The notes under the pieces were generated by a model. The model saw only the letters and a program-made list of their open reading frames with translations, had not been told where the DNA came from and did not search any database. A stretch of 64,000 nucleotides of DNA. Source: Gammaproteobacteria bacterium. Lineage in GTDB: Bacteria; Pseudomonadota; Gammaproteobacteria; Poriferisulfidales; GCA-002705445. A program made the translations under genes and the position numbers. Below are positions 4,464 through 51,156 of this stretch, piece after piece (within the stretch, counting starts at the first letter, position 1; each line of letters starts with the position of its first letter). The stretch spans positions 594,962-658,961 of the forward strand of contig JBJKYB010000002.1 in assembly GCA_045561235.1 (NCBI GenBank), given 5' to 3'.

Positions 4464-4466
4464 TAA

Positions 4467-8093: not shown

Positions 8094-8159
8094 TTGAATC
8101 CTCCAAAACACTTAAAGTTTGTTATCAGATAAAAGTTTAATGATATTAAAGTTAAATAC

Positions 8160-8617: not shown

Positions 8618-8798
8618 GGTAAAACCGATGTACCGTTATTGTATATTTTCCTTGAACCGATAAGTTCAGGTGGGTTTAAGTTTTATACATTAGGCTACCT
8701 AAAATATTATAGGTTTGCTCACCTGTAATAATTTACTTAATCCCTATTTTAAAATTAGGAACAAAGATATAACTACTATATCGCGTACATCAGTTATT
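8618..8798 (-). ncRNA. ssrS: 6S RNA (SsrS) candidate, about 180 nt, directly downstream of zapA as in E. coli.
   Basis: On the minus strand the 5' end ...CTGATGTACGCG... can pair with the 3' end ...CGGTACATCGG (closing stem). The 3'-proximal element CACCTGAAC-ttatcg-GTTCAAGG matches the E. coli 6S element CACCTTGAACC-aag-GGTTCAAGG as I recall it from memory. It lies in a 290-bp noncoding gap after zapA. Confidence 0.6.
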
Positions 8799-8848
8799 TT
8801 TAAAATATATCAAATAAAAATAGAATAAACCAGTTTAAAATATCTTTT

Positions 8849-14490: not shown

Positions 14491-15226
14491 TTGATTCTAA
14501 AATATTTTTTACAGTTTGGTAACATTCATTTGAAATTGATTTTCTATCTTTACCTTTTGTTTCAATCAGTTTTGTAATAGTAATTTCAGCGGTGATATCT
14601 TTGTGAAATAGAACTTTAAGAATATTTAAAAATAAAGAATTCCCTCTTACAAAAGGGACACTAGGATGGATATTTTTATTTTTATATGGATATTTTATTA
14701 CTACACATTGAACTGGACAGCTAGAGTCTATGCAGCTAGCAAATAGCCTGGGTTTAAAACTTAATAGTTTTTTTCCTCCAGAAGAAGTTCCCTCTGGAAA
14801 TATTGCTACATTTCTGTTGCGAGATAGGAATTCAGATATACCAGATACCGCTAATGAGGCTGCATTTTTTTCACCTCTATTTATAAAAAGCATATCAACA
14901 GCAGTGGTGATTTTGCCAATGACTGGCCATTTACTTACCTCAATTTTTGATAAAAAGGTGGTTTTAAACGTGCTTCCTAAAATTATGATATCCAGCCATG
15001 AGGAATGATTGGAAATAATTAAGTAATTCCCTTGTTTTATATCACCTTTTATAATTGTTTTTACTTCAATAATATCTAGTATCTTTTTAAACCACAGTCT
15101 TATTTTTTCAGATTGTTTATCGTTAGCACATATATCAAAATCCCCGATTTCAGCAATTATTGCTTTTGTATTTGTTATATGAACAACAAACTTAAGTAGC
15201 TTTTTAAAAAAATTTATTATTCTCAT
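14480..15226 (-). CDS. Lysophospholipid acyltransferase family (PlsC-like 1-acyl-sn-glycerol-3-phosphate acyltransferase).
   Basis: HX4D motif NHSSWLD, FPEGT motif (IFPEGTSS). 248 aa. Overlaps the neighbouring genes at both ends. Confidence 0.75.
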
Positions 15227-17271
15227 AATAGATTGACCCTATTTGAAAATTCATTTATATCATTAATTGGTTTTTCACATGTAAAGCCTTTACATATATA
15301 TGCTGTCACATCTCCCAGAGCTTTCTTGTCATCAATACTTTTATATCCTGTATTATTGTTACTTATATAAAAGTAACTAATATAAGGTTTGTTAAGAGCA
15401 ATCAACTTGTCAATCCATGTGTAAATATTATTTGATTTTACATTTGTTTTCAAAATAATGGTAACAATTGGCTTTTTCATTAAGAGATAATTATCAAGAA
15501 GAGAACTATGAGAATTAGGAGAGTCATTTAATTGTTTCGATGCATAGGAGAAAACAGATTCTGCAGCATCAATATATTTTGTATTATTCATGAGAAAACC
15601 TAATTTTATAAATATTTTTGATGCCAAACTATTTCCAGATGGAAAGGCTTCATCAGCAGTCGGTTTTGGTTTTTGTATGAGGATCTCGTGCTCTTTGGAG
15701 GTAAAGTAAAATCCCCCATCAGAGAAATCTAAAAACTTTTCAATTAACACATCTGCCAGAACAATTACTTTTTCAAATAATTTATCATTCCATTTTATAG
15801 ATAAGAAATTTAAGATAGCATTTATTAAAAAAACATAATCGTCTAGATATGCATCTATGTGAGACTTTCCATTTTTATATGTCGCGTTTAACTTAGTTTT
15901 ATCTAGCATATTACTAATTAAAAAAAGTATAGATTTTTCAGCGCTTTCTAAATAAAGAGTATTTCTTGAGATTTTATAGTATTCAATTAAAGAATTTGCA
16001 GTTAACGAGTTCCAAGATGTCAGTATTTTTTCATCTGTGAAAGGTTTTTTTCTTTTATTTCTGATATCAAGAAGTATGTTTATGCTTTCATCTAATAGTT
16101 TATAGTCGACATTTTTTATTCTTGATTTAAATTCTACTTTTGTATTATAAGAAATATATAAATGATATTTATTTTCAAAATTACTTTTTTTACTCAAGCC
16201 GAAGTGATCTGAAAACACGTCAAATTGATTTTTGCTAAGATTTTTCTCTACTTCTAATTTATCCCAAACATAATACTGTCCTTCGCCATCATCAGAATCA
16301 GCATCTATACTTGAAAAAAAACCTCCTTCGCTCGATTGCATTTCATTGATGATCCAGTCAGCTATTCTCTTTGCTGTTTTGAAGAAACTTTGGTCTTTAG
16401 TAATGAAGTAGGCTTTAGAATAACATTCTAACAAGCAAGAATTATCATATAACATTTTTTCAAAGTGAGGGATCATCCAAACGTCATCAACTGAATATCT
16501 GAAAAATCCACCACCGAGTTGATCATTGATTCCACCTTCTTGCATTGAAATGAGACTATAAAGCGCCATATTTAAATCATCTTGATCATCTTTTTTATTG
16601 TTATATTGGTGCGAATTCAATATATACATTATAACGCTTGGTTGAGGGAATTTTGGAGCAGAACCAAAACCGCCCATGGTTATGTCAAAAGCACTTCTTG
16701 CATTTTTCATGTATTTCTCTTGTATTTTTCTATCAATATCTTCTTCGTTTGTATTATTTCTATCTATTTGATCTAAAGCTCGAATAATTGACTTGTTATG
16801 ATTTAAAATTTCATCATAATTATTATTATAGTAATCATAAATTTTCATTAATAATTCTTTAAAGCTTGGTAAATTATATTTATTTGTATTTGGGAAATAA
16901 GTACCTCCAAAAAACGGTGCTTGATTATCATGAGATAAGAACATTGTTAGAGGCCAGCCTCCAGATCTTTGGTTTAGAAGAATTTGTGAAGTTTGATAAA
17001 TTTTATCCAAATCTGGTCGTTCCTCTCTATCCACTTTTATGTTTATAAAATATTTATTCATAATCTCTGCAGTTTTATCATCCTCAAATGATTCATGAGC
17101 CATCACATGACACCAATGGCATGCAGAATATCCAATAGATAACAAAATAGGTTTTTTCTCTATTTTTGCTTTATTTAAAGCCTCTTTTCCCCAAGGATAC
17201 CAATCAACAGGATTTTTTGCATGCTGAAGTAAATAAGGGCTTGTTTCTTTTGAGAGACGATTTATTTTCAT
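15223..17271 (-). CDS. yyaL: YyaL/COG1331 thioredoxin-domain protein (DUF255 N-terminus plus six-hairpin glycosidase-like/N-acylglucosamine-2-epimerase-like C-terminus). Probable start is MKINRL at 17271. The track start at 17337 would overlap the divergent lgt.
   Basis: N-terminus [28 protein letters not shown]..., thioredoxin-like CHWCHVM motif. About 680 aa, typical of the family. Confidence 0.8.
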
Positions 17272-17311
17272 ACCTCTGCTATTATATACATTTATAATAA
17301 AATTATTAGTA

Positions 17312-18082
17312 ATGATACATAATTTAAATCCGATCATTATTTCTTTTGGTAGTTTCCATATTTACTGGTATGGATTTATGTACCTAATTGCTTTTTTAGC
17401 AGCTTGGCTACTAGGAAATCTATATATAAAAAAAAATATTATTAAAATTGATAATAATAAATTTTCTGATTTGTTATTTCTTTGTTTTTTGGGCATTTTG
17501 ATTGGAGGAAGAATTGGCTATTCGTTTTTTTATAATTTATCTTCAACAATAGAAAACCCATTAACTATATTTTTTTTATGGGATGGCGGCATGAGCTTTC
17601 ACGGTGGATTTCTTGGTGTAATTATTAGCATTGTTTATTTTTGCAAAAAAAATAAGATTTCTTTTTTTATAATATCTGATTTTATAGTCAAATTGGTACC
17701 TATTGGATTATTTACTGGCAGAATTGGAAATTTTATTAATGGGGAACTAATCGGTAAACCAACAGATCTTCCTTGGGGGGTAGTATTTTTAAAAATTGAT
17801 GATTTGTATAGACATCCGTCGCAATTATATGAAGCTTTTTTGGAAGGTGTGGTCTTGTTTATAGTTTTAAATTTTATAGTTTCAAAAAATGCAAAAACTG
17901 CAACTGCAACAGCTTATTTTTTAATATTATATTCTTTATTTAGATTTCTAGTAGAATTTTTAAGATTACCAGATTCCCATATTGGATATCTTATGTTTAG
18001 TTGGGTTACAATGGGACAAATTCTCTGTATACCAATGTTTTTTTTAGGTTTGTATATTTTAAGAATAAGAAATGGTGACTAA
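17312..18082 (+). CDS. lgt: Phosphatidylglycerol--prolipoprotein diacylglyceryl transferase.
   Basis: Lgt signature blocks HWYG(F)[38 protein letters not shown](F)LEG, GQIL(S/C)IPM. lgt-thyA adjacency as in E. coli. Confidence 0.9.
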
Positions 18083-18087
18083 TATTT

Positions 18088-18882
18088 ATGAAGCAATATC
18101 TGGATCTACTTAATCACATTATAAATGAAGGTGTTGAAAAAAATGATAGGACTGGTGTAGGAACCCTATCAGCTTTTGGGTACCAAACACGATTTGACTT
18201 ATCAAAAGGTTTTCCTCTAGTAACAACGAAAAAAATTCATTTAAAATCAGTAATATATGAGCTTCTATGGTTTATCAATGGTGATAGTAACATAAATTAT
18301 TTAAATAGTAATGGTGTGACAATTTGGGATGAATGGGCTGACGAAAATGGAAATTTAGGAAAAATTTATGGAGTTCAGTGGAGAAGCTGGGGAACAAGTA
18401 AAGGTATACATATAGATCAATTAAATAATTTAATGAAAAATTTGGAAAAAAATCCAGATTCAAGAAGACATATTATATCGGCTTGGAATGTTGGAGAATT
18501 AGATGATATGGCTTTACCACCATGTCATTGTTTATTCCAATTTTATGTGGCAAATAATAAGCTTTCATGTCAGCTATATCAAAGAAGTGCAGATGCTTTC
18601 CTTGGAGTTCCTTTCAATATTGCTTCTTATTCATTATTGATTCATATGATTGCGCATGTTTTAGATTTTAAAGTCGGAGAACTTATATATACAATTGGTG
18701 ATGTGCATTTATATAATAACCATATTGAACAAGCAAAAATACAAATTAGTCGAGATCCATATAAACTTCCTATTTTAAAAATAAATAAAGAGGTTAAAGA
18801 TATTTTCTCATTTAATTATGAAGATTTTGAAATTATTAATTATAAAGCGCATCCTCATATAAGTGGAAAAATAGCAATATGA
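18088..18882 (+). CDS. thyA: Thymidylate synthase (ThyA type).
   Basis: 264 aa, same as E. coli. Motifs DRTGVGT, catalytic LPPCH, YQRS(A/C)D.FLG.PFNIASY, GD(V/A)H(L/I)Y.NH. Confidence 0.95.
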
Positions 18883-19361
18883 ACTTATCTATAATAGTCG
18901 CTATGTCAAAAAATAGGGTTATAGGAAAGGACAATAAAATGCCTTGGCATTTATCAAATGATCTAAAAAACTTTAAAAAAATCACAATTGGAAAAACTAT
19001 TGTAATGGGAAGGTTAACCTATGATTCTATCGGCAGACCGCTTCCTGAAAGAAAAAATATTGTCTTATCTAGAAATCTTATAGACTCAGATGTATTTATT
19101 TTTGATAATTTTGAAGAAGTTTTAAATTTTACCAAAGATGAAGACGAAGTATTTATTATAGGAGGTCAAGATATATACTCTCAAACAATTGATAAAGTAA
19201 ATAAATTATATTTAACTACAATAGACGCTAATATAGAGGGAGATAAATATTTTCCGGAAATTGATATTTCTAAATGGAAAAAAATTCGCTCAGAGAATTT
19301 TAGCAAAGATCAAAATAATACACATGATTTTGTATCAGAACTTTATATAAAAAACATTTAA
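18879..19361 (+). CDS. folA: Dihydrofolate reductase.
   Basis: 160 aa. N-terminal (I)[26 protein letters not shown]..(V)MGR.T(Y/F).S. and FIIGGQ motifs. Start overlaps the thyA stop (ATGA). Confidence 0.9.
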
Positions 19362-39215: not shown

Positions 39216-40880
39216 ATGAATATGAAGACTTCTGACCTATTTGTTAAGTGTCTTGAAAATGAAGGAATTGAATACATCTTTGGTGTTCCAGGCGAGGAAA
39301 ATGCAGATTTTTTGATGTCTTTGCACGAGTCTAAGAAAATTGAATTCATTTTAACAAGACATGAACAAGGCGCAGCTTTTATGGCTGAGTCATACGGAAA
39401 ATTAACAGGAAAGCTATCTTGTTGTTTAAGTACACTAGGACCAGGCGCTACAAATCTGCTTACTGGTGTTGCAGATGCAAATATGGACCATTCTCCAGTT
39501 TTAGTTATTACAGGACAAGGCTCTTCAGATAGGCTTCATAAAGAGTCGCACCAAATAATGGATGTCTGTCACATGTTTAAATCAGTAACCAAATGGACAA
39601 CCTCGGTAAGAAATCCAGCCACAATCCCTGAAATTATTAGAAAAGCTGTAAGATTGGCAACATTAGAAAAACCTGGTGCAGTACATATTGAATTACCAGA
39701 GGATATTGCAAGATTAGATGTGAAAGCAAAACCTTTAAAATCTTTTCCTTATAGAAGGTCTATTGCCGAGGATAATATTATATATAAAGCATTTAAGTTA
39801 ATGTCTGAAGCAGAATCACCAATACTTATTGCAGGAAATGGAGCTATAAGAAAAAGATCATCAAGACAACTCAGGGAATTTTGTGAACGAACAAATATTC
39901 CTGTTGTAACCACATTTATGGGTAAGGGTGCAGTTAATTGTGAGTCGGATTATTGTTTATCAACAGTTGGATTAGGCGCAATTGATTTTGGAGATATCGC
40001 AATAAAGAATTCAGATCTTGTTATAACGTTAGGATACGATATGGTAGAATACCATCCAAAACTTTGGCGCACTAATTCTTCAGCCAAGATTATTCATATA
40101 GATTTTGAGGCAGCCGAAATAGACGAATATTATATTCCAGAAGTTGAAATTATTGGAGATTTAGCTCACTCCTTATCTGTGTTGAATAAAATAATAGATA
40201 CAGAGGGTATAAAATCCTATGATAATACAAACGTAAAAAAATTAAGAGCTAGTTTAAAAAAAGATAATGAGAATTATAAAGATGATAAATCTATAGGTTT
40301 AATAAAACCACAAAAGTTTTTATATGACTTGAGAAACTTTTTAGGTAAAGATGACATATTAATATCTGACGTTGGTGCACACAAAATGTGGATTGCCAGA
40401 AATTATCCCTGTTATGAGCCAAATACATGCATAATTCCGAATGGGTTTTGCTCGATGGGATATGCATTACCAGCAATAATTTCGGCATCACTAATAAATG
40501 AGAACAGAAAAATTTTTTCAATTTGCGGAGATGCAGGTTTCTTAATGAATCTCCAAGAGATGGAAACCGCTAAAAGGCTTAGCGCAAATTTTGTATTGAT
40601 TGTTTGGGAAGATAAATCCTATGGTTTAATTAAATGGAAGCAGCAAGCACAATTTGGGAAATCAACAGATCTTGATTTTAATAATCCAAATTGGGAAAAA
40701 TTAGCTAAATCTTTTGATTGGAATTATATATTTGAAGATGATAGTTCTAAGATTACAAAAAGCTTAGAAAAAACCAATAATCTTAAAGGTCCAACTTTAT
40801 TTGTTATACCAATAGATTATTCTGAAAATGGGAAGTTAACTAAATTTTTAGATGATTTAGAAAAAAAATATGACACTTAA
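39216..40880 (+). CDS. Thiamine-diphosphate-dependent enzyme of the acetolactate synthase family (catabolic AlsS/AruI-like 2-oxoacid decarboxylase/carboligase).
   Basis: 554 aa. Motifs (I)FGVPGEEN, RHEQGAAFMAESYGKLTGK, LGPGATNL(L)TG, TPP-binding GDAGF...N. Architecture PYR-middle-PP. Confidence 0.8.
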   Translation: MNMKTSDLFVKCLENEGIEYIFGVPGEENADFLMSLHESKKIEFILTRHEQGAAFMAESYGKLTGKLSCCLSTLGPGATNLLTGVADANMDHSPVLVITGQGSSDRLHKESHQIMDVCHMFKSVTKWTTSVRNPATIPEIIRKAVRLATLEKPGAVHIELPEDIARLDVKAKPLKSFPYRRSIAEDNIIYKAFKLMSEAESPILIAGNGAIRKRSSRQLREFCERTNIPVVTTFMGKGAVNCESDYCLSTVGLGAIDFGDIAIKNSDLVITLGYDMVEYHPKLWRTNSSAKIIHIDFEAAEIDEYYIPEVEIIGDLAHSLSVLNKIIDTEGIKSYDNTNVKKLRASLKKDNENYKDDKSIGLIKPQKFLYDLRNFLGKDDILISDVGAHKMWIARNYPCYEPNTCIIPNGFCSMGYALPAIISASLINENRKIFSICGDAGFLMNLQEMETAKRLSANFVLIVWEDKSYGLIKWKQQAQFGKSTDLDFNNPNWEKLAKSFDWNYIFEDDSSKITKSLEKTNNLKGPTLFVIPIDYSENGKLTKFLDDLEKKYDT

Positions 40881-42318
40881 AAAAATTAAAAATATTACCC
40901 CTGTTCAAATTAAAAATCCAAAAACTGTTGATTTAAATTCACCCTGGGATTTAAAAATCGTCGGGCATATAGAGTGCATAGAAAAAAAGCATGTTGATGA
41001 AATACTAAATATAGCGTCAAAAGCTTTTCATAATAAAGCAAAACCTTTAAATAAAATAGAAAGAATAAAGATACTCAAGAAATGTAAAAGTAAGTTAGAA
41101 AAGAATTCACAAAAGTTCTCAAAAATTATTGCGTTAGAGGGTGGAAAACCATTAAAAGATGCAAAAATAGAAGTTGAAAGAGCTATTAATGGAGTTGATC
41201 TTTGTGTCGAAGCATTAAATAAATGCTCTGGGTCAGAAATACCAATGAATATTAGTAATTCATCATTAAACAAGATAGCATTTACAAAAAAATTTCCAAT
41301 TGGGCCAGTATTTGCGGTCAGTGCATTTAATCATCCATTAAATTTGATAGTTCACCAAGTCGGTCCAGCTATAGCTGCAGGATGTCCAGTAATCATAAAA
41401 CCTTCTTTGGATACTCCATTATCTTGTTATGAGTTGATTAAGATATTAATAGAAAGTGGCTTACCCACCGAATTTTGCCAAATGATAAATACTAACGATC
41501 ACATGATTACACAAAAATTTGTGAGTGATCCAAGAATATCCTTTTTTTCTTTTATTGGAAGTGCTGAAGTTGGCTGGAAATTAAAATCTTTATTACCACC
41601 TGGAGCAAAGTGCGCGATGGAACATGGAGGTGTTGGTTCTGTGATATTAGATAAGGATACAAACTTAAAAAATATTTTACCTTCGATTTTGAGGGGTGCA
41701 TTTTATCATGCTGGACAGGTATGTGTTTCAATTCAAAAAGTAATTGTTCACGAAGATTTAGTAGATGAATTTTTAGATTTATTAAAAAAATCAATTAAAA
41801 AATTAAAAGTTGGAAATCCTTCGAATATTAAAACGGATGTTGGGCCATTAATTCGCCCATCGGAGGTTAAAAGAATTGATAGTATTGTAAAAAAATCAAT
41901 AAAAGAGGGAGCTGAAATAATTTGTGGAGGATTTTCTAATAAAGAAACAACTTACGAATGTACAGTTATTAAAAATCCAAAAGATAAGTCGGAAATTAGT
42001 CAAAACGAAATATTTGGGCCAGTATTATGTTTATACGAATTTCGCACTATGGAAGATGCAATAAAAAAAGCAAATAACGAAAAATATGCCTTTCAATCTT
42101 CAGTATATACGCAAAATATTGATACAGCGATGCTTTGTTATGAAAAACTTGACGCAAAAAGCGTCTTTATTAACGAACAAACTGCGTTCAGAGTTGATTG
42201 GATGCCATTTGGAGGAATTAAAAACTCTGGTGAAGGCGTGGGCGGTATAGAATACTCTTTTTCTGATCTATTGTATGATAAACTAATTATTATTAACTCA
42301 AAAAACATAATTTCTTAG
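40870..42318 (+). CDS. NAD(P)+-dependent aldehyde dehydrogenase. Start overlaps the TPP-enzyme stop.
   Basis: 482 aa. Catalytic Cys block (F)YHAGQVCVS, glutamate block (M)EHGG, FGPV(L), (P)FGG(I/V)K.SG.G. Overlaps the previous gene by 11 nt. Confidence 0.85.
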   Translation: MTLKKIKNITPVQIKNPKTVDLNSPWDLKIVGHIECIEKKHVDEILNIASKAFHNKAKPLNKIERIKILKKCKSKLEKNSQKFSKIIALEGGKPLKDAKIEVERAINGVDLCVEALNKCSGSEIPMNISNSSLNKIAFTKKFPIGPVFAVSAFNHPLNLIVHQVGPAIAAGCPVIIKPSLDTPLSCYELIKILIESGLPTEFCQMINTNDHMITQKFVSDPRISFFSFIGSAEVGWKLKSLLPPGAKCAMEHGGVGSVILDKDTNLKNILPSILRGAFYHAGQVCVSIQKVIVHEDLVDEFLDLLKKSIKKLKVGNPSNIKTDVGPLIRPSEVKRIDSIVKKSIKEGAEIICGGFSNKETTYECTVIKNPKDKSEISQNEIFGPVLCLYEFRTMEDAIKKANNEKYAFQSSVYTQNIDTAMLCYEKLDAKSVFINEQTAFRVDWMPFGGIKNSGEGVGGIEYSFSDLLYDKLIIINSKNIIS

Positions 42319-42332
42319 ACTAAAAGGAAAAT

Positions 42333-42998
42333 ATGAAGTATTTATTATTATTTATATATTTTTTGTCATTTAATTTATTCTCAGCGGCTGACGAACCTCA
42401 TCCAATCATAGACTCTAATTACATTTCAAAATATTCATATGATTTAGAGACTATGAATATCGAGGAATTAGAAGAAACAAAATTAACCTTAAAAAATTAT
42501 CTTAAAAATAATAATCATAAAGATACATATTCGGACAATACTGCTAAAGAGGAATTACTTGTTGCCTTATTAGAATATGATGATGTAAGAATACAAATTA
42601 CAGATGTTATCGACGAAGTAATAAACGAATATAAAGTTGAAGAAGATGTTAAAAATATATTACTTAGTTTCAAGAGCACTTTTGAAAATATCATTAAAGA
42701 TAATAGGCATCTTGTAAAAAATTTAAGAGATTATAAGGCATATGATTTTCGTTTAGGTTCAGCATATTTAGCAATGATGAGTGCTTTTCATGAAACTGAA
42801 GAAAGTAGAAAGTTTTATTCAAGGTTAGTACAAGATAAAAAAGATGACAAAACAAGCATTGGGCGATACAACAAAAAATTAAAATTATCTCAAGAAAATA
42901 TTAATTTAGTTAAAAAAGAAATAGAAAAACATTCAGAAATATCAGATGTAAAAAAAGTACTAGCAAAAATTGAAAAAGAAATTCTGTCAAGGGAATGA
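42333..42998 (+). CDS. Hypothetical secreted protein (signal peptide, then an acidic helical region).
   Basis: N-terminal MKYLLLFIYFLSFNLFSAAD signal. 14-nt gap after the ALDH gene. I recognise no family. Confidence 0.5.
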   Translation: MKYLLLFIYFLSFNLFSAADEPHPIIDSNYISKYSYDLETMNIEELEETKLTLKNYLKNNNHKDTYSDNTAKEELLVALLEYDDVRIQITDVIDEVINEYKVEEDVKNILLSFKSTFENIIKDNRHLVKNLRDYKAYDFRLGSAYLAMMSAFHETEESRKFYSRLVQDKKDDKTSIGRYNKKLKLSQENINLVKKEIEKHSEISDVKKVLAKIEKEILSRE

Positions 42999-43048: not shown

Positions 43049-44020
43049 TTATACTACTCTATCACCTGGTTCTTTATTGTTATAAAAAGCTTCCATATTT
43101 TCCAATACCCTCATTCCCATAGCGATTCTTGTCTCTATAGAGGCACTACCTAAATGCGGAAGTAATACAGCATTTTCACAATCTAAAAAACCTGGATTAA
43201 GTTCTGGCTCACCTTCGAATACGTCAAGGCCTGCTCCAGCAATTGTTTTATTTTTCAAAGCTTCGATCAATGCATCATTATCTATAACATCTCCTCTGGC
43301 AGAATTTATTAGATAAGCTCCTTTTTTCATCATTCCAATTCTTTCTTTATTCATTAAATGATATGTGCTTTCTCCACCAGGACAGTGAATAGAAACAAAA
43401 TCAGCTTTCTCTAGCACTTCTTCTACACTTGAGCATGGTGTTGCATCATATTTTTTAATTACCTCATCTGATGGCATGTATGGGTCGGAGAATATAATTT
43501 TCATCCCAAATCCAAAATGTGCTCTATCAGCAGTTGCTTGAGCTATTCTTCCAAAGCCAATACAACCCAATGTTTTTCCAGTTACTTGTGTGCCCCTAAG
43601 ATGTGTTGGTCTCCATCCAGCCCATTTACCAGCTCTTAACTCTCTCTCACCTTCACTTGTTCTTCTAGCTGCGGCTAATAATAACGTCATGGCTATGTCC
43701 GCCGTACAATCCGTTAAAACTTCAGGAGTATTTGTAACAACTAAATTTTCTTTTTTTGCAGCATTTAAGTCTATATGATTAAAACCCACTCCAAAACTAG
43801 CAATAATTTTTGCTTTTTTATTTTCTACTGATAGAACTTCCTCATTTATAGGATCTGTAACAGTAGGACAAACGCAATCATAGTTTTGAAAAGCTGATTG
43901 AAGTTCAGCAATACTCATAGGGACGTCTTTTTCATTTAGTGTTACGTCATATTTTTCTTTTAATTCTGCTTCAACTTCAGCAGGCCATTTTCTTGTTACT
44001 AATACTGTTGGTTTACTCAT
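43049..44020 (-). CDS. hprA: Hydroxypyruvate reductase / glycerate dehydrogenase (D-isomer-specific 2-hydroxyacid dehydrogenase), serine-cycle HprA-like.
   Basis: 323 aa. N-terminal (V)LVTRKWP, NAD-binding G.GRIG, catalytic R/E/H blocks (N.ARG..(I/V)D, HLGSA). Last gene of the sga-mcl-mtkAB cluster. Confidence 0.8.
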   Translation of the reverse strand: MSKPTVLVTRKWPAEVEAELKEKYDVTLNEKDVPMSIAELQSAFQNYDCVCPTVTDPINEEVLSVENKKAKIIASFGVGFNHIDLNAAKKENLVVTNTPEVLTDCTADIAMTLLLAAARRTSEGERELRAGKWAGWRPTHLRGTQVTGKTLGCIGFGRIAQATADRAHFGFGMKIIFSDPYMPSDEVIKKYDATPCSSVEEVLEKADFVSIHCPGGESTYHLMNKERIGMMKKGAYLINSARGDVIDNDALIEALKNKTIAGAGLDVFEGEPELNPGFLDCENAVLLPHLGSASIETRIAMGMRVLENMEAFYNNKEPGDRVV

Positions 44021-44038
44021 CTCTTTCCTCGACTATAT

Positions 44039-44929
44039 TTATAAATTTTTATTTATTACTTCTTTCATTGTGCTACCCATCTCAGAAGGATTTGGAATTA
44101 TATGAATTCCAGCTTCTTTTAGTAACTCAACTTTTTCTGCTGCACTTTCACCTTTGCCTGAAACAATTGCACCAGCATGACCCATTCTTCTTCCTTTTGG
44201 TGCCGTTAAACCAGCTATATATGCAGCAACCGGCTTTTTCATATATTTTTCAACATATTCAGCAGCCTCAGCTTCTTGTGGACCGCCAATTTCTCCAATT
44301 ATCATTACAGCTTTTGTTTTTTCATCTTCATTAAATAACTCAAGTATATCTTTATGAGAGCTTCCATTAATAGGATCTCCACCAATACCTACACTCGTAG
44401 AAATACCAATACCCTCTGATTTCATTTGTGAGGCCGCTTCATAACCTAGCGTTCCTGATCTGCCAATAACACCTACCTCCCCAGGCATATATATGTGGCC
44501 TGGCATGATGCCAATCATCGCTTCCCCTGGTGTTATAGTTCCAGCACAATTTGGACCAGTCAGAATCATTCTGTCTTCTTTTTTATATCTAAGCATATAT
44601 CTTTTAACTTTTATCATATCATGTGCAGGGATTCCGTCAGTAATTGAGACAGCATATTTAATTCCTGCATCTGCAGCTTCCATAATACCATCAGCCGCAG
44701 CCGCAGCAGGAACAAAAACTATAGTTGCTTCAGCGCCAGTGGCATCTACAGCCTCTTTAACAGTATTGAATACGGGTTTATTTAAATGAGTTGTACCACC
44801 TTTTCCTGGTGTTACTCCTGCAACAACATTAGTCCCATATGCAATCATTTCTTCAGCATGGAAATTACCTATTCTTCCAGTAATTCCCTGAACTAAAACT
44901 TTTGTATTTTTATTTAATAAAACTGACAT
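44039..44929 (-). CDS. mtkB: Malate--CoA ligase (malate thiokinase) alpha subunit, SucD-like.
   Basis: 296 aa. CoA-binding VLVQGITG, phosphohistidine loop (M)GHAGAI. Assigned as MtkB rather than SucD because it sits between mcl/sga and hprA with no sucAB nearby. Confidence 0.75.
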   Translation of the reverse strand: MSVLLNKNTKVLVQGITGRIGNFHAEEMIAYGTNVVAGVTPGKGGTTHLNKPVFNTVKEAVDATGAEATIVFVPAAAAADGIMEAADAGIKYAVSITDGIPAHDMIKVKRYMLRYKKEDRMILTGPNCAGTITPGEAMIGIMPGHIYMPGEVGVIGRSGTLGYEAASQMKSEGIGISTSVGIGGDPINGSSHKDILELFNEDEKTKAVMIIGEIGGPQEAEAAEYVEKYMKKPVAAYIAGLTAPKGRRMGHAGAIVSGKGESAAEKVELLKEAGIHIIPNPSEMGSTMKEVINKNL

Positions 44930-44943
44930 TATCTTCCCCTTAA

Positions 44944-46107
44944 TTATTGTTTAGCAGCATCAACAGCCTTTTGTGCTGCATCTTTTAAAGTGTCGGCTAG
45001 AATTATGGGAAGCCCACTTTCTTTTACAATTTTTATACCTTCTTCTACATTTGTTCCTGATAATCGAACTATTAAAGGAATTTTTAAATCTACTTTAGGA
45101 ATAACTTGAACTAGACCCTCAGCAATCCAATCGCATCTGTTAATACCTGCATAAACATTTACAAGCATTGCTTTTACTTTTTTATCAGCTAGGACCAATT
45201 CAAATGCTTTACCAACTCTTTCTGGAGAAGCCCCACCTCCTATGTCCAAAAAGTTTGCAGGTTCGCCACCACAATATTTTATCATGTCCATTGAAGCCAT
45301 TGCCAAACCAGCACCGTTAATAATACAGCCAATGTCACCATCCAAACCAACATAACTGAGATCATGCTCTTTAGCCGCTACTTCTCTTGGATCTTTTTGA
45401 GAATTATCATTAAGAGAATCAATTTCAGGATGTTTAAATAAAGCGTTGTCATCAAAGCTAACTTTTGCATCAAGTGCAATAAGATTATTATCTTTTGTCA
45501 AAACTAATGGATTTATTTCTAGCATATTCATATCTAAATTAGTCATAGCTTTATAGCAACCCATTAATAATTTAACCGCTTTTCCAAGTGCTTCTTTAGG
45601 AAGATTAAGTGCAAAACTTAATTCTCTTGCTTGAAAACCTGTAAGTCCTACTACGGGGTCAATTTCAATTTTTTTAATAGAATCAGGTTTTTCTACTGCA
45701 AGTTCTTCTATTGACATACCACCTTCGGCTGAAGCGACAATAACAATTCTTTGTGATGCTCGGTCCATTACAAATGCTAAATAAATCTCCCTGTCGATAT
45801 CACAACCGGATTCAATATAGAGTTTTTCAATTAACTTCCCTTCGTCACCAGTTTGAATAGTTTTTAAATAAGTGCCAAAAAGTTTCTCAGATGCAGCTTT
45901 AACTTCCTCATCAGATTTACAGAGAACTATACCTCCAGCTTTACCTCTTGCACCAGAATGAACTTGTGCTTTTACAACACATAAATCTGTTCTTAATTTT
46001 TTAAATGCATCGACAGCTTCTGTGGAGTTGTGTGCTAGCTCACCTGCTAAAATTTGAACTCCATAATTTGATAATATTTCTTTCGCTTGATATTCGTGTA
46101 TATCCAA
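44944..46107 (-). CDS. mtkA: Malate--CoA ligase beta subunit, SucC-like (ATP-grasp).
   Basis: 387 aa. N-terminal MDIHEYQAKE(I)L, ATP-grasp and ligase-CoA domains. Context as for mtkB. Confidence 0.75.
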   Translation of the reverse strand: MDIHEYQAKEILSNYGVQILAGELAHNSTEAVDAFKKLRTDLCVVKAQVHSGARGKAGGIVLCKSDEEVKAASEKLFGTYLKTIQTGDEGKLIEKLYIESGCDIDREIYLAFVMDRASQRIVIVASAEGGMSIEELAVEKPDSIKKIEIDPVVGLTGFQARELSFALNLPKEALGKAVKLLMGCYKAMTNLDMNMLEINPLVLTKDNNLIALDAKVSFDDNALFKHPEIDSLNDNSQKDPREVAAKEHDLSYVGLDGDIGCIINGAGLAMASMDMIKYCGGEPANFLDIGGGASPERVGKAFELVLADKKVKAMLVNVYAGINRCDWIAEGLVQVIPKVDLKIPLIVRLSGTNVEEGIKIVKESGLPIILADTLKDAAQKAVDAAKQ

Positions 46108-46122
46108 AACAGTTCCCCTATA

Positions 46123-47070
46123 TTATTTTTTTGCATTAATTGCTTTATCGGTTTCAACAATGTTTTCAGCCATCTTTGCTGATGCTGCATCTATTAGTCT
46201 TCCATCTAATGAGGCGGCTCCTTGGCCAGCTTTTGCAGCTTCGTCTAAAGCTATTAAAATTCTTTTCGCTTTATCGACCTCCGCTGGTGGAGGTGTAAAT
46301 ACTTCATTCGCAAGCTCGATTTGTGAAGGGTGAATAGCCCATTTCCCCTCATATCCGAGAGCAGCAGCTCTTTTAGCAGCCAGCGTATAACTTTCTGGAT
46401 CTTTAAAATCTCCAAATGGCCCATCTATTGCTCTTAGACCATATGCTCTACACGCTACTAACATTTGTGATAAACCAGCATGCCATTGGTCTCCAGGATA
46501 ATCTGGATTTAGACCACCTATCACTGTGGTTCTTGCTCTACAGCTTGCTGCATAATCAGCAACCCCAAAATGCATAGCTTCTAATCTCTCTTCACGTCCA
46601 GATTTGGCTATGTCCATAACATTAGCCATACCAAGAGTTGTTTCAATTAAAATTTCTATTCCAATACGTTTTTTTAAGCCTTTAGAAGTTTCAATTTGAT
46701 TAAGGAGTGCTGACAACATATAAATATCGGAGGGTGTTCCAGCTTTTGGAAGCAATATAGTGTCAAGATGCTCACCAGCCTGCTCGACTACCTCGATTAC
46801 GTCTCGATACATATAATGTGTGTCAATACTATTAATTCGAACGGAAATAGTTTTTCCATTTCCTTGCCAATCAAGATCTTGAAGAGCTTCAATAACATTT
46901 TTTCTTGCAGTTACTTTATCATCTGGCGCTACTGCATCTTCTAAATCTAAAAAAACAAAATCAACATCACTGTTTAATGCTTTTTCAAACATTTTTGGGT
47001 TTGACCCAGGAACTGCAAGTTCGCTTCTCTGAACTCTTCTAGAAGTTTGTTCATAAATTTTATGGCTCAT
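46123..47070 (-). CDS. mcl: L-malyl-CoA/beta-methylmalyl-CoA lyase (HpcH/HpaI / CitE-like aldolase family).
   Basis: 315 aa. Family motifs RSELAVPG, DLEDAV, GIEILIET. Adjacent to mtkAB and sga as in methylotroph serine-cycle clusters. Confidence 0.8.
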   Translation of the reverse strand: MSHKIYEQTSRRVQRSELAVPGSNPKMFEKALNSDVDFVFLDLEDAVAPDDKVTARKNVIEALQDLDWQGNGKTISVRINSIDTHYMYRDVIEVVEQAGEHLDTILLPKAGTPSDIYMLSALLNQIETSKGLKKRIGIEILIETTLGMANVMDIAKSGREERLEAMHFGVADYAASCRARTTVIGGLNPDYPGDQWHAGLSQMLVACRAYGLRAIDGPFGDFKDPESYTLAAKRAAALGYEGKWAIHPSQIELANEVFTPPPAEVDKAKRILIALDEAAKAGQGAASLDGRLIDAASAKMAENIVETDKAINAKK

Positions 47071-47092
47071 TTTTTATCCTTTTTTAATTTTT

Positions 47093-48331
47093 TTATTTTT
47101 TCTTTTTCTTTTTCTTTGTTTTATCAGGATTACTTGTCCAATATTTTGCTGCAGCACCTGTACCACTTCCTGGTGTGAATTTAATGCCAGCATCAATCAT
47201 TGCCATTTCTACTCCACCAAGAGCAGCCATCATCCTTGCCTCGTTATTATCACCAAGATGCCCAATTCTAAAAACTTTACCAGCTACTTGAGTAAGCCCA
47301 GCACCCAAAGAAATATTATATCTATGATATGCAATGTTAATTACCTCGATAGCTTTTTTCCCGTCTGGGTTATTTTTAGATCCTGGTTCAAGCCAGATTG
47401 CGCTAACCGTATCTGATTGCCACTTTGGAGATGAAGCTGCCAGTTTTAATCCCCAAGCTTTTATTGCAGCGCGGACTCCACTAGCCAGTCTTTTGTGTCG
47501 ATAAAATACGTTCTCCATTCCTTCCTCAAGTAAAAGATCTATTGCTACTCTTAATCCTCTAAGTAAGTTAACTGGTGGTGTATATGGAAAAAAACCATCT
47601 TTATTTGTGTTTAAATGATCTTGTATATCTAGGAAACACCTCTTACATTTAGCCGTCTTTCTCATTGCAAGAGCTTTCTTACTAAAACACAGAATTGCTA
47701 AACCCGCCGGCAGCATAAAACCCTTTTGAGATCCACTTACTGCTATATCAACTTTCCACTTATCAAATCTAAATTCAACACTTGCAATCGAACTTACACC
47801 ATCAACCATTAATAAAGCTGGATGTTTAACTTGATCCATTGCTTTTCTTAATCCGGCAATATCACTTGTCACGCCTGTAGCAGTTTCATTGTGACAAACC
47901 ACAACTGCTTTAATTTTTTTATCTTTATCTTTTGCTAAAGCCTTTTTGAATTTTTCAATTTCTATACCATTACCCCATTTTGTATCAATTAGTTCTACAT
48001 CAAGACCAATTCGTTTGGCCAAGTCATACCAAAGATGACTAAATTGACCAAATCTTGAAGTAAGAATTTTATCGCCCGGTGATAGAGTATTTGCTAGTGC
48101 AACTTCCCAGCCTGCTGTTCCAGTTGCGGGAAAAATGAAAGGTGTTCCAGTTTTTGTCAGAAGTACTTTTTTTAAGTCTCTTAAAATTGGTTTTACAAGC
48201 TCAGGGAAGTCAGGAGCTCTATGATCTTCCATCGGGACGTTCATTGCATTTTGAACTACTGTTGGAATATGTGTTGGTCCAGGAGCAAATAAATAGTTTC
48301 TTCCAGGGAATGATAATTTTTGGCCAGGCAT
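47093..48331 (-). CDS. sga: Serine--glyoxylate aminotransferase (class V aminotransferase) with an unusual C-terminal poly-lysine tail (...PDKTKKKKKKK).
   Basis: 412 aa. N-terminus LFAPGPT.IP, PLP-Lys block SGSQKG(F)M.P(A)GL. The K-tail is encoded by the A-rich tract at 47096-47120. Confidence 0.85.
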   Translation of the reverse strand: MPGQKLSFPGRNYLFAPGPTHIPTVVQNAMNVPMEDHRAPDFPELVKPILRDLKKVLLTKTGTPFIFPATGTAGWEVALANTLSPGDKILTSRFGQFSHLWYDLAKRIGLDVELIDTKWGNGIEIEKFKKALAKDKDKKIKAVVVCHNETATGVTSDIAGLRKAMDQVKHPALLMVDGVSSIASVEFRFDKWKVDIAVSGSQKGFMLPAGLAILCFSKKALAMRKTAKCKRCFLDIQDHLNTNKDGFFPYTPPVNLLRGLRVAIDLLLEEGMENVFYRHKRLASGVRAAIKAWGLKLAASSPKWQSDTVSAIWLEPGSKNNPDGKKAIEVINIAYHRYNISLGAGLTQVAGKVFRIGHLGDNNEARMMAALGGVEMAMIDAGIKFTPGSGTGAAAKYWTSNPDKTKKKKKKK

Positions 48332-48464
48332 AATATTTTCCTATAAGTTGTTAAATTCGTTGTATTTTAATTAAATCCATATTTTATTAAAATGAATAAG
48401 GCGTAAATAATGCCATAGCATCTTGTGAGGCTCAACCTTTAATTATTGCTAATATAGATTCTAC

Positions 48465-49334
48465 TTAATTAGAGATTATACCTTGAAGTTCCGCAGCTTT
48501 CATAGTGTTTTCAAGGAGGCATGCAACTGTCATGGGTCCAGTTCCACCTGGCATTGGAGTTACTGCTTTAGCAATTCCATCAACAGAATCGAAATCAACA
48601 TCACCATGGATGCCTTTATCGTCACTACTTATTCCAACATCAAGTAAAATAGCGCCTTTCTTTACATTTTTCGAATTAATTATGCCTGGAACACCAATAG
48701 CAGGCACGACAATTTCAGATTCTGAAATTAAATCATCTAGATTTTTTGTTCTAGAGTGAGCTAGGGTAACAGTACAATCAATACCTTTAGATCCAAACAT
48801 TATAACTTGTGGCATACCGACAAGTCTTGATCTTCCAATTACTAATGCTTTTTTTCCAGATGTTTCCAAATCATAATATTCTATAAGTCTCATAACCCCA
48901 AGTGGAGTGCATGGCCTTAAAACATCATTTCCAACAATTAATTTACCAAGATTTTGTTCTTTAAGACCATCAACATCTTTATTTGTTGGAATCATTTCAA
49001 TTACGCTGTCTTCATTTAATCCCTTTGGCAAAGGCATTTGTATAAGAATTCCATTAATAGTAGGGTCATTTCCAAGCTCAGATATCTTTTGTTCTAATTC
49101 AGATTGAGATATATTCCCAGGAAGATTTACATGCATTGATTTAATTGATGATGCTGTTGCCTGTTTATGCTTATTATTTACATAAAGTTGACTTGGTTTA
49201 TCATCTCCAACTAAAACCGTTGCAAGGGTTATTTCTGAGCCTGAATCTTCTATTTTTTTCTTTATTGAACTTTGAATTTCTTGCGCAACAAATCTTCCAT
49301 CCAATATCAAAGTTCCTTTTTCTGTATATTTCAT
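48465..49334 (-). CDS. folD: Bifunctional 5,10-methylene-THF dehydrogenase / 5,10-methenyl-THF cyclohydrolase.
   Basis: 289 aa. Motifs (K)DVDG, TPLG, VIGRS..VG.P, TV..HS.T, (P)VPGGVGPMTVA.L(L)ENT. Confidence 0.9.
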   Translation of the reverse strand: MKYTEKGTLILDGRFVAQEIQSSIKKKIEDSGSEITLATVLVGDDKPSQLYVNNKHKQATASSIKSMHVNLPGNISQSELEQKISELGNDPTINGILIQMPLPKGLNEDSVIEMIPTNKDVDGLKEQNLGKLIVGNDVLRPCTPLGVMRLIEYYDLETSGKKALVIGRSRLVGMPQVIMFGSKGIDCTVTLAHSRTKNLDDLISESEIVVPAIGVPGIINSKNVKKGAILLDVGISSDDKGIHGDVDFDSVDGIAKAVTPMPGGTGPMTVACLLENTMKAAELQGIISN

Positions 49335-49360
49335 ATTTATTTAATAATTATTTATTTTTT

Positions 49361-50284
49361 CTAAACTTTTGGTTGTTTGTCAGGGTGAAGATAAATAAAG
49401 CTTTTACCGAGTTTTCCATTGTAGTTGCCAGCAGAAATCATTAATAAATCATCGGTATCTTTTGATGCTGCAATTGCTGCTTGAGTTGCTGTTATTATAG
49501 ATTCCATATCCTTACCATTCATAATTATTTCCATTACAGAATTAACTCCTTCAGGTAAAGCGCCTTCTACACCAGGATTATCCTGAAGCAAAGGGCAAAA
49601 TTTTTCATATGTGCTAGCAATAGTAAAATCATAATCACTTCCAGCTTTAGAACCACTTCCAGCTATTCCGCCAGGAAATGTAGTAATAACATTTGGTATT
49701 GGTAAAATAGCTTCAACACCTTTTTCAGCGGCCTCTAATGCAGACTCTGTATTTTTCCCAAAATACCAGAGGTTTCCACCCATAAGACCATCTGAGTAAC
49801 CAAGTCTTCTGTCAATAACAAACTCGCCCCCTAATATAGGTATCCACCACATTTTTCTTCCATACCTTTCGATTCTTTTTTGATACTTATTCCCAAAAAA
49901 AGCAACTTTTTTTCCTAATTTGAAATATGATTCGCTATCTTCCATTAGGTTGAAGCACGATGCAGTAGGACATGTAAGTATATTTTGACTTATTCTTACT
50001 AGAGCAGCCTTTTCTAATTTTTTTGGATCTTTCCAAAATTTTGGAATATGCAATTGTATAATTGCTCCCGGTCTATTATCAGGTGTTGAAACACTTTCGT
50101 CGCCACCAGGACCAACGTATCTGTCTAAACCAGCTTCGCAGTCACATAATATACTGCTTGAAGCATTACCTGTCGCTGCGTTAATTGCATGGTCAAGCCA
50201 CTTTTTATTAATTGCTGTAATTAAAACCTCAGAATACATACTTTTAAAAGCTTCTGCATATGTATCATCTATAATTGCACTCAT
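49361..50284 (-). CDS. Ftr/FhcD-like formyltransferase (formylmethanofuran--tetrahydromethanopterin N-formyltransferase family homologue) with no neighbouring Fhc/H4MPT genes.
   Basis: 307 aa. Blocks that match my memory of archaeal Ftr: N-terminal IDDTYAEAF...VLITA, ITTFPGGIAGSGSKAGS, YEKFCP, ISAGNYNGKLGKSFIYLH (Ftr: ITSFPGGIVASGSKVG..., EKFC, ISAGNYGGKLGK.KFYLH). Recalled from memory, not searched. Confidence 0.6.
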   Translation of the reverse strand: MSAIIDDTYAEAFKSMYSEVLITAINKKWLDHAINAATGNASSSILCDCEAGLDRYVGPGGDESVSTPDNRPGAIIQLHIPKFWKDPKKLEKAALVRISQNILTCPTASCFNLMEDSESYFKLGKKVAFFGNKYQKRIERYGRKMWWIPILGGEFVIDRRLGYSDGLMGGNLWYFGKNTESALEAAEKGVEAILPIPNVITTFPGGIAGSGSKAGSDYDFTIASTYEKFCPLLQDNPGVEGALPEGVNSVMEIIMNGKDMESIITATQAAIAASKDTDDLLMISAGNYNGKLGKSFIYLHPDKQPKV

Positions 50285-50286
50285 GT

Positions 50287-50919
50287 TTAACCTCTTCCTT
50301 TTCCTTCATAAACATTTGATTCAGTGACTACTTTATCCATATATACATCATGAGGAGCAACTAAAATTTCGTCGAATAGTTGTGATTCATAACATAAGGC
50401 TATCAAAGAACAGTCCGGTCTTACTTGTTCCATTGTTCTATCATAATAACCCTGGCCATTTCCCATTCTCCCACCACTTCTATCAAAACCAGTACCTGGA
50501 ACCATTATCATGTCTAGTTCTTGAGGTGTGACTTCTTTATCTGGATTACCCCATAGCTCTTTTGGTGGTTCTAAAATATTCCATTTTCCTACCACCATCT
50601 CCTCTAAGCTAGACATATGCCACAGCCCAAGCTTATTTTCTCCGTTTTCATCTTCAGTACAGTACGGGACGATAATTTTCTTTTCGCCTTTCTCAACTTC
50701 TTTAATTAAATGTGGTTTTGTTCTTGTTTCAGATCTGCAGTCTATGTACCACATTATTACTTGCGCCTCTTTATATTCTTGAAGTGACATAAATCTTTCA
50801 CAAGCACTAGCGCTAACCTCATCTTTATTTTCTTGAGCGGCTCTTCTGTCATATGCTTCTCTTCGCATACCAGACTTTTTCTCCATAATTTTTTCTAATT
50901 CTTCTTTAGATATTGACAT
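50287..50919 (-). CDS. ygfA: 5-formyltetrahydrofolate cyclo-ligase (MTHFS; YgfA-like).
   Basis: 210 aa. C-terminal GxGxGYYDR signature (GNGQGYYDRT) and (M)(V)PG.GFD..G.R(M/L)G motif. First gene of the minus-strand C1 operon. Confidence 0.8.
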   Translation of the reverse strand: MSISKEELEKIMEKKSGMRREAYDRRAAQENKDEVSASACERFMSLQEYKEAQVIMWYIDCRSETRTKPHLIKEVEKGEKKIIVPYCTEDENGENKLGLWHMSSLEEMVVGKWNILEPPKELWGNPDKEVTPQELDMIMVPGTGFDRSGGRMGNGQGYYDRTMEQVRPDCSLIALCYESQLFDEILVAPHDVYMDKVVTESNVYEGKGRG

Positions 50920-51061: not shown

Positions 51062-51101
51062 ACACCTACTTTGCAATATATCTTTTATTATAAGTAGGTG
51101 T
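51062..51101. promoter_or_regulatory. 10-bp perfect inverted repeat ACACCTACTT-N20-AAGTAGGTGT in the divergent ygfA/cysG intergenic region. Candidate operator or RNA hairpin.
   Basis: Arms at 51062-51071 and 51092-51101 with an AT-only 20-nt spacer. Located about 145 nt upstream of ygfA and about 55 nt upstream of cysG. Confidence 0.4.
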
Positions 51102-51156
51102 AAAAATAATCTATCATAGTATATAAAATTTCTATGAAAGTGGGGGGGGATTAAAT

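Follow-up and report, generated by a model that had tools for sequence, protein, structure and literature searches.

The formyltransferases that work between methanofuran (MFR) and tetrahydromethanopterin (H4MPT) are described as Ftr in archaea and, in bacterial one-carbon (C1) metabolism, as the FhcD subunit of the Fhc complex. Ftr chemistry yields an N5-formyl pterin (PMC3087415), and the catalytic, protonated glutamate is Glu245 in the Ftr of Methanopyrus kandleri and Glu252 in FhcD (PMC6926001). A different entry of C1 units into assimilation is documented in Methylosinus trichosporium OB3b, where the operon ftfL-sga-hprA-mtdA-fch-mtkA-mtkB-ppc-mcl co-transcribes three folate genes with the serine cycle and the entry point is formate (PMC3615186). 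Here we analysed a gene of the Ftr family in a 64,000-nucleotide stretch of a gammaproteobacterial genome (contig JBJKYB010000002.1 of assembly GCA_045561235.1; hereafter the window, in whose coordinates positions are given unless another locus is named). The gene (49361-50284, minus strand, ATG start, 307 amino acids) directly follows a gene for 5-formyltetrahydrofolate cyclo-ligase (MTHFS, gene ygfA) at the head of a serine-cycle operon. We give an even chance to the reading that the two products form a module that loads a formyl group onto N5 of tetrahydrofolate (THF), probably from formyl-methanofuran, and so feeds the serine cycle. Our results suggest an undescribed C1 feed into folate in abundant marine and sponge-associated bacteria; our searches of the open-access literature turned up neither an MTHFS-Ftr pair nor an Ftr gene within a serine-cycle operon.

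Membership of the Ftr family is confirmed. The first-pass annotation, made without database searches, had recognised the protein by several long shared sequence blocks, and the strings it quoted (ITTFPGGIAGSGSKAGS, STYEKFCP and ISAGNYNGKLGKSFIYLH) are all present in the translation. Pfam detects both lobes (FTR, residues 4-150, E = 3e-42; FTR_C, residues 153-300, E = 2e-47), the two-lobe architecture runs along the full length, and the protein aligns over its full length with four solved structures. The cut-offs of the NCBIfam models NF002554 (318.8 bits against 297) and TIGR03119 (fhcD; 298.8 bits against 292.6) are passed marginally, which is consistent with an outlier clade. The closest solved structures are archaeal Ftr (1M5H from Archaeoglobus fulgidus, 1FTR from M. 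kandleri and 1M5S from Methanosarcina barkeri; 215-220 bits, E from 1e-63 to 4e-64), and FhcD of Methylobacterium extorquens (6S6Y_D) matches more weakly (158 bits, E = 2e-45). Since identity to the crystal structures reaches 43%, the Ftr fold is settled. Of 41 residues that at least 80% of other family members share, the window protein retains 36, and among these is the catalytic glutamate, E252 in the motif VMEII. Changes at such highly conserved sites are clade-wide in two cases (Arg to E19, Met to L151), occur in most clade members (71%) in a third (Pro to T202), and at positions 132-133 (Asp, Gly) affect some members only, the window protein included (Asn, Lys). Three further substitutions are invariant in the clade at sites conserved in 47-79% of other family members, namely Asn to Y226, which falls in the ASTN motif, Cys to N101, and Tyr to M251, which adjoins the catalytic glutamate. 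The clade-specific residues are E19, H79, N101, L151, Y226 and M251.

A scan for relatives, with one genome per species, returned 71 loci. The closest proteins (85-94% identity) come from low-GC marine metagenome-assembled genomes (MAGs) and single-amplified genomes that carry the label Gammaproteobacteria or the implausible label 'Thiothrix'. More numerous are proteins at 76-82% from higher-GC Gammaproteobacteria, many from sponges or other hosts, under labels such as Oxydemutatoraceae, 'Porisulfidus' and Thiotrichales. UBA868/Arenicellales, marine gammaproteobacteria with a serine cycle according to a preprint, were rejected as the source lineage: their genomes have 49% GC and carry fhs, and the tables consulted list no ftr. 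At 56-73% there follow Planctomycetes (Pirellulaceae, Gemmataceae and others) and one Methylococcaceae MAG. An exhaustive search of 50%-identity representatives gave 946 at E ≤ 1e-3 and 98 at E ≤ 1e-30; the whole gammaproteobacterial-planctomycete group is covered by a single representative, P0302, from marine Planctomycetes, and the next full-length representatives are just 39-48% identical. It had been proposed that phylogeny might reveal a distinct clade linked to folD/ygfA in other genomes, and a distinct, ygfA-linked clade is what emerged: in a neighbour-joining (NJ) tree the group is monophyletic and branches separately from both archaeal Ftr and the clade holding M. extorquens FhcD. Orthology with proteobacterial FhcD was not found, given the separate NJ clade and an identity of 36% to 6S6Y_D. 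The window protein shares 43% of residues with archaeal Ftr and 36-38% with FhcD-type proteins, whereas archaeal Ftr and FhcD types share 47-54% with each other (47% for FhcD against M. kandleri Ftr, 50% for the P0324 type discussed below against the same protein). By these identities the MTHFS-linked clade is the sequence outlier of the Ftr family, and it appears to be a third, previously unseparated lineage beside archaeal Ftr and FhcD. In the NJ tree the gammaproteobacterial sequences lie inside planctomycete diversity, and this simple distance tree suggests that ftr may have moved by transfer from Planctomycetes to Gammaproteobacteria. Automatic annotation labels all proteins of the clade formylmethanofuran-H4MPT formyltransferase. 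The window protein is found in identical form on at least 24 public contigs and is indexed in 76 blocks of public assemblies; clusters at 93-94% identity comprise 200 and 854 sequences.

The gene that precedes ftr (50287-50919, minus strand, 210 amino acids) matches PF01812 (E = 1.6e-37), passes TIGR02727 (MTHFS_bact; 128.1 bits against a cut-off of 84.9), has PDB matches 1SOU and 1YDM, and keeps the GxGyYDR and PGxxFDxxGxRxGxGxGYYDR motif; judged by curated cut-off and motif, its product is a bona fide MTHFS. MTHFS converts N5-formyl-THF to methenyl-THF at the expense of ATP, and without it N5-formyl-THF is unusable; 5-formyl-THF is usually regarded as a dead-end by-product and MTHFS as a repair enzyme. 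The first-pass annotation had listed ygfA as one of two flanking genes. The adjacency holds, but the gene is more than a neighbour and must be regarded as the key partner: of the 64 loci whose sequence extends beyond the start of ftr, 60 have MTHFS directly upstream in the same orientation, and in one further locus the two genes are divergent. Spacing is -4 to +6 nt in Gammaproteobacteria, apart from one locus (L042) with 15 nt, and ranges from -4 (overlap) to 170 nt in Planctomycetes and in the Methylococcaceae-like locus L053. Across loci the identity of MTHFS to the window copy declines in step with that of Ftr, and therefore the two genes travel as a unit. The pairing is specific to this clade and near-universal within it, and the finding is reproducible over about 75 loci in two phyla. 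Apparent MTHFS-Ftr fusions (P0404, 410 amino acids; P0316, 316 amino acids), with domain fragments in one open reading frame, are probably frameshift or read-through artefacts and were not used as evidence. Fusions also occur in other clades, as FhcA-Ftr (P0330) and Ftr-FhcC-like (P0353) proteins.

The FhcD-like P0324 type offers a comparison within the family. A metagenome scan seeded with FhcD-like representatives yielded 80 loci of this type, or 81 with L082; fhcB is nearby in 17 of the 81, a dihydropteroate synthase (DHPS)-like H4MPT-biosynthesis gene in five, and an adjacent MTHFS in none. In L082 the order fhcB-ftr adjoins a DHPS-like gene on a contig with planctomycete-style DUF1559/N_methyl genes. 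No fhcB homologue was detected by tblastn in the window or in the first 71 loci of the MTHFS-linked clade. These patterns suggest that the canonical FhcD-type role belongs to the P0324-type Ftr and not to the MTHFS-linked type. Both Ftr systems probably coexist in planctomycete-like genomes, the MTHFS-linked protein being a paralogue rather than 'the' FhcD. A hint of such coexistence in one genome comes from the metagenome contig L109, where a P0324-type Ftr (4241-5137) is followed after 4.7 kb by an MTHFS of the kind linked to Ftr (9802-10284), cut by the contig end.

The operons in which the pair is found place it on the folate side of C1 metabolism. In the window the minus-strand order is ygfA, ftr, folD, sga, mcl, mtkB, mtkA, hprA, and the gaps read from the sequence (2 nt between ygfA and ftr, 26 nt between ftr and folD) agree with those first reported, as do the common strand and the run into the serine-cycle genes. 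In more than 40 gammaproteobacterial loci the pair heads the run ygfA-ftr-(folD)-sga-mcl-mtkB-mtkA-hprA, with folD downstream of ftr in most of them, such that ftr marks a serine-cycle assimilation operon in these abundant Gammaproteobacteria. In the higher-GC lineages hprA is followed, wherever the locus extends that far, by ppc and then by a gene for a 288-residue MtdA orthologue (307 bits against M. extorquens MtdA, 1LU9/6TGE). Five loci (L039, L043, L046, L166 and L167) have mtdA only, with no folD or fch in the locus, so that MTHFS is their sole locus-encoded route to methenyl-THF. The gammaproteobacterial operon has the same gene set as that of Methylosinus except for ftfL/fch, whose place is occupied by ygfA-ftr. 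Between low-GC and high-GC lineages no genes of the operon are better conserved than those for Ftr (about 78-80% identity) and MTHFS (75-78%); folD reaches about 50-55%. L164 shows the arrangement sga-hprA-ygfA-ftr. This 4.68-Mb genome also carries a convergent set (13135-18969, minus strand) of two Mer-like luciferase-family proteins, an F420 reductase NpdG and electron transfer flavoprotein (ETF) subunits alpha and beta; for the Mer-like proteins the top match is 5,10-methylene-H4MPT reductase, at 202 and 162 bits and so under its cut-off, the NADPH-dependent NpdG passes its cut-off, and the Mer/NpdG/ETF set is present in no other locus.

Another context points towards methanofuran. In the Methylococcaceae-like loci L053 (8624-11672) and L165 (7669-10741) a fae-like gene, MTHFS, Ftr and the methanofuran-biosynthesis gene mfnB follow one another on one strand, and the window Ftr is 70-75% identical to the Ftr proteins of these two loci. 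The fae-like gene of this lineage barely reaches the cut-off of TIGR03126 (118.6 bits against 118.05). Both loci also have a conserved radical-SAM-like gene immediately upstream of this run, encoded on the other strand. In Planctomycetes the ygfA-ftr pair stands alone amid unrelated genes.

In the reading that we favour, the Ftr-clade enzyme would move a formyl group from a formamide donor, likeliest formyl-methanofuran or formyl-methylofuran, to N5 of THF, giving 5-formyl-THF; MTHFS would then convert 5-formyl-THF to 5,10-methenyl-THF in an ATP-dependent and irreversible step; FolD in the window, or MtdA in relatives, would carry methenyl-THF on to methylene-THF; and methylene-THF would enter the serine cycle, for which the remaining genes of the operon code. 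Such a module would replace FtfL and Fch as the C1 entry at an ATP cost equal to that of FtfL, and it would connect oxidation by way of methanofuran/H4MPT directly with assimilation by way of folate. It would also explain the mtdA operons that lack a cyclohydrolase, because MTHFS makes methenyl-THF directly. We regard methanofuran as the likeliest carrier of the donated formyl group because in L053 and L165 the pair has mfnB and the fae-like gene as its neighbours; the folate-side contexts, taken with this mfnB context, would put the module at the junction of two cofactor systems. The window organism clearly uses folate, since folA and thyA are in the same window. Hydrolysis of formyl-MFR has a free-energy change of -22.9 kJ/mol (PMC6926001); formyl-MFR is not readily made from free formate, and the proposed bridge therefore needs an upstream H4MPT branch in the carrier genomes. 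Both the choice between formyl-methanofuran/H4MPT and folate as substrates of this Ftr clade and, within the scheme, THF as acceptor, the identity of the donor and the direction of flux are matters that we infer from gene context and sequence. Recruitment of an Ftr homologue to folate chemistry had been a hypothesis of the first-pass annotation; it is plausible and is now better grounded by the MTHFS linkage, the separate clade and the ftfL/fch position, while the substrate assignment itself keeps the conditional standing just described. The accompanying proposal that the enzyme might hydrolyse formyl-THF to formate found no support, as Ftr is a transferase and the hydrolase of the known system is FhcA (PMC6926001).

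Several observations weigh against a folate-linked bridge. Three planctomycete loci (L052, L054 and L064) have no adjacent MTHFS. With both family cut-offs passed and the catalytic glutamate and most of the conserved positions kept, unchanged MFR/H4MPT specificity would be the default expectation from sequence, and the fae-like and mfnB neighbours would be just as compatible with a canonical H4MPT/MFR role. The presence of MtdA offers no discrimination between the two pterins, since the enzyme accepts both H4MPT and THF (dual-specific, by the molecule name of 6TGE). A formyl-MFR donor would moreover presuppose methanofuran and a source of formyl-MFR in the carrier genomes, and no MfnB was seen on 24 contigs of more than 1 Mb with a gammaproteobacterial Ftr among the best 120 of 3,472 and 5,535 matches, a weak negative.

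The most conservative alternative is that the protein is an ordinary formyl-MFR:H4MPT formyltransferase, that a complete H4MPT/MFR formaldehyde oxidation pathway is encoded elsewhere in the genome, and that MTHFS is a housekeeping neighbour or serves to clean up 5-formyl-THF. The points of sequence just named speak for it, as do about 43% full-length identity to solved archaeal Ftr, the flanking genes of L053 and L165, and the fact that bacteria often have H4MPT gene sets that are partial and scattered (PMC5020050). Yet it leaves three things unexplained: a near-universal, translationally coupled linkage to MTHFS in two phyla, the absence of an adjacent MTHFS from all 81 loci of the fhcB-linked type, and the head position in serine-cycle operons, some of which have mtdA without a cyclohydrolase. 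That the clade is an outlier of its family also sits poorly with it. A search of the genomic surroundings bears on the same question. The gene had been called an orphan outside any H4MPT context, and no fae, mch, mtd, fhcABC or H4MPT- or methanofuran-biosynthesis family is indeed present in the 64 kb, nor in the approximately 84 kb formed by the window and some 10 kb on each side, for which we used pre-computed Pfam matches on public contigs with identical proteins. An orphan, H4MPT-free status beyond these 84 kb is not established, and in L053 and L165 the pair has a fae-like gene on one side and mfnB on the other. Across the first 71 ygfA-ftr loci (about 1.1 Mb), tblastn with FhcB, the DHPS-like H4MPT protein, DUF447, MfnB and Fae returned only the mfnB and fae of L053, which again argues against a canonical role. 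On balance we consider this alternative somewhat unlikely.

Two further alternatives were considered. The MTHFS homologue might act as an ATP-driven cyclo-ligase on N5-formyl-H4MPT and, with Ftr and an MtdA- or FolD-like enzyme, form a reductive branch that runs wholly on H4MPT. The serine cycle, however, requires methylene-THF, the score of the partner places it among the bacterial, THF-type MTHFS equivalogs, FolD, which comes next in most gammaproteobacterial loci, belongs to a THF-dependent family, and with Mch present the ATP-dependent step would amount to a futile cycle. There is precedent in methanogens without THF, which encode an MTHFS homologue proposed to act on 5-formyl-H4MPT (PMC3087415), MtdA accepts H4MPT, and a fae-like gene lies beside the pair in L053 and L165; even so we find an all-H4MPT module highly doubtful. 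Conversely, both archaeal-type cofactors might be absent, the enzyme being a folate formyltransferase that takes its formyl group from N-formylglutamate or another formamide. The formiminotransferase domain of FTCD, which transfers the group of N-formimino- or N-formyl-glutamate to THF to give 5-formimino- or 5-formyl-THF, would be a chemical precedent. No H4MPT/MFR gene was found in some 50 gammaproteobacterial loci, and this, with the negatives for the 84 kb and for MfnB on the large contigs, agrees with such an enzyme, as does a small genome of 30% GC, of a type known to shed the H4MPT pathway (PMC5020050). The identity of 70-75% to proteins flanked by mfnB makes a change of donor unparsimonious, and we judge a methanofuran-independent enzyme of this kind quite unlikely. 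The more specific proposition that a streamlined lineage, abundant in the ocean and in sponges and without H4MPT and MFR, uses a folate-specific N5-formyltransferase, supplied by some other formyl donor, with MTHFS as its main, Fhs-independent route of C1 assimilation seems to us unlikely as well.

In the course of this search a cofactor-biosynthesis cluster of DUF6513 (DHPS-like), DUF447 and MfnB was noted in L080 (8031-10702; 2.05 Mb) and L163 (6435-10690; 1.54 Mb), the MfnB proteins of which have few close database relatives. L080 was considered as an Ftr carrier and dropped, as no link to any Ftr-bearing contig was found.

The remaining genes of the window operon lie on the minus strand below ftr. 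folD (48465-49334, 289 amino acids; PF00763 and PF02882) encodes a methylene-THF dehydrogenase/methenyl-THF cyclohydrolase, and sga (47093-48331, 412 amino acids; PF00266) a class-V aminotransferase of the serine-glyoxylate aminotransferase type, which scores 559.8 bits against the NCBIfam BhcA model, under its cut-off of 650, and is syntenic with the sga of relatives. The sga product ends in a lysine run (...NPDKTKKKKKKK), an unusual low-complexity C-terminal tail. There follow mcl (46123-47070, 315 amino acids), for a malyl-CoA lyase-type HpcH/HpaI/CitE enzyme identified by Pfam, NCBIfam and synteny in relatives; a gene in the mtkB position (44944-46107, 387 amino acids), for a malate-CoA ligase beta subunit (NF010647, 620.8 bits against 604); mtkA (44039-44929, 296 amino acids), for a malate/succinate-CoA ligase alpha subunit; and, as the final gene of the run, hprA (43049-44020, 323 amino acids), for a D-2-hydroxyacid dehydrogenase of the hydroxypyruvate/glyoxylate reductase type, the last two assigned by Pfam and NCBIfam. 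With sga, mcl, mtkBA and hprA co-linear with folD, the run has the makeup of a serine-cycle operon; ppc and mtdA are in the clusters of higher-GC relatives and not in this window, and glyA, gck and eno are absent from the 64 kb. A putative sigma-70-like operon promoter, TTTACA-18-TATATT (51075-51104, minus strand), is a consensus match only (10 of 12 positions). It lies upstream of ygfA and is the strongest such match between cysG and ygfA, in an intergenic region of 237 bp whose total of sigma-70-like sites does not exceed the shuffled expectation. No riboswitch or other RNA was found upstream of the ygfA-ftr operon at E ≤ 1. The G+C content of the operon region (44001-50000) is 0.345-0.373, against 0.30 for the window, and its GC skew is strongly negative, features that fit high conservation, high expression or foreign origin.

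The surrounding 84 kb are occupied by housekeeping genes, among them groEL/ES, folA, thyA, lptD, surA, pbp2, rodA, metG, cysG, rpoN and his genes. Back-to-back with hprA, positions 39216-42998 on the plus strand encode an acetolactate-synthase-like thiamine pyrophosphate (TPP) enzyme (NF006187, 688 bits against 509), an aldehyde dehydrogenase and a 221-residue protein without a family; these three genes are syntenic across the low-GC clade L001-L013, and a TPP enzyme 60-65% identical to the window copy is found 8.5 kb from the DUF6513-DUF447-MfnB cluster of L080. A 6S RNA gene (ssrS, 8618-8799, minus strand; Rfam, 72 bits) adjoins zapA. In Escherichia coli and many relatives ygfA comes after ssrS; the ssrS-adjacent slot of the window is taken by a 118-residue open reading frame (7755-8111, minus strand) with no family match, and the idea that this is a remnant ygfA was rejected, there being no similarity to MTHFS. 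The sole MTHFS seen is the copy within the ftr operon.

If the proposed module is real, it would constitute a third way into the C1-folate pool, beside formate-THF ligase and serine/glycine cleavage, and would give 5-formyl-THF and MTHFS a productive metabolic role. It would physically link the archaeal-type methanofuran/H4MPT branch with the folate branch of bacterial C1 metabolism. The H4MPT genes of Planctomycetes have long lacked a clear role, and the module could explain the second Ftr copy in that phylum. Matches to 'ftr/fhcD' in ocean and sponge metagenomes would need rereading, and ygfA-ftr would be a compact two-gene candidate for engineering C1 assimilation free of both cyclohydrolase and formate. 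The pairing, and the replacement of ftfL/fch, are likely to surprise specialists in C1 metabolism.

Set against the systems described so far, the window protein shares with archaeal Ftr (M. kandleri 1FTR/2FHJ, A. fulgidus 1M5H, M. barkeri 1M5S) the two-lobe architecture, a similar length and the catalytic glutamate, and like them it is a stand-alone protein, neither fused nor linked to fhcABC. It differs in forming a separate clade with E19 for Arg, Y226 for Asn, N101 for Cys and L151 for Met, and in being paired with MTHFS, in aerobic bacteria, within folate/serine-cycle operons. FhcD of the Fhc complex is a bacterial C1 enzyme of the same family, with the catalytic glutamate at E252 in both numberings; the window protein is 36% identical to it and has no fhcA, fhcB or fhcC adjoining, and proximity to fhcB, seen in part of the FhcD-like P0324 loci, never occurs in the ygfA-linked type. 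The window Ftr probably works outside any Fhc complex. FTCD-type routes follow a similar two-step logic, in which N5 of THF first receives its group from an N-acyl amine donor through a transferase and another enzyme then performs ring closure to methenyl-THF; those families are presumably unrelated in sequence to Ftr and MTHFS, and ring closure proceeds by deamination in FTCD and would be ATP-dependent here. The methanogen proteins MTH204 and MTBMA_c06530 likewise place an MTHFS-family protein, of unexplained role, alongside Ftr chemistry (PMC3087415), whereas no linkage to ftr is reported there and the partner here is a bacterial-type MTHFS. A functional counterpart is the FtfL, Fch and MtdA entry of Methylosinus (PMC3615186), which has the same operon neighbourhood and first-gene position as ygfA-ftr, spends one ATP per C1 unit and yields methenyl- and then methylene-THF, as proposed here, and whose MtdA has an orthologue in many of the ygfA-ftr relatives. 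The enzymes of the ygfA-ftr pair are nonetheless non-homologous to FtfL and Fch, and in the scheme proposed here the intermediate would be 5-formyl-THF rather than 10-formyl-THF, the substrate would be carrier-bound formyl rather than free formate, and a cyclohydrolase would be unneeded.

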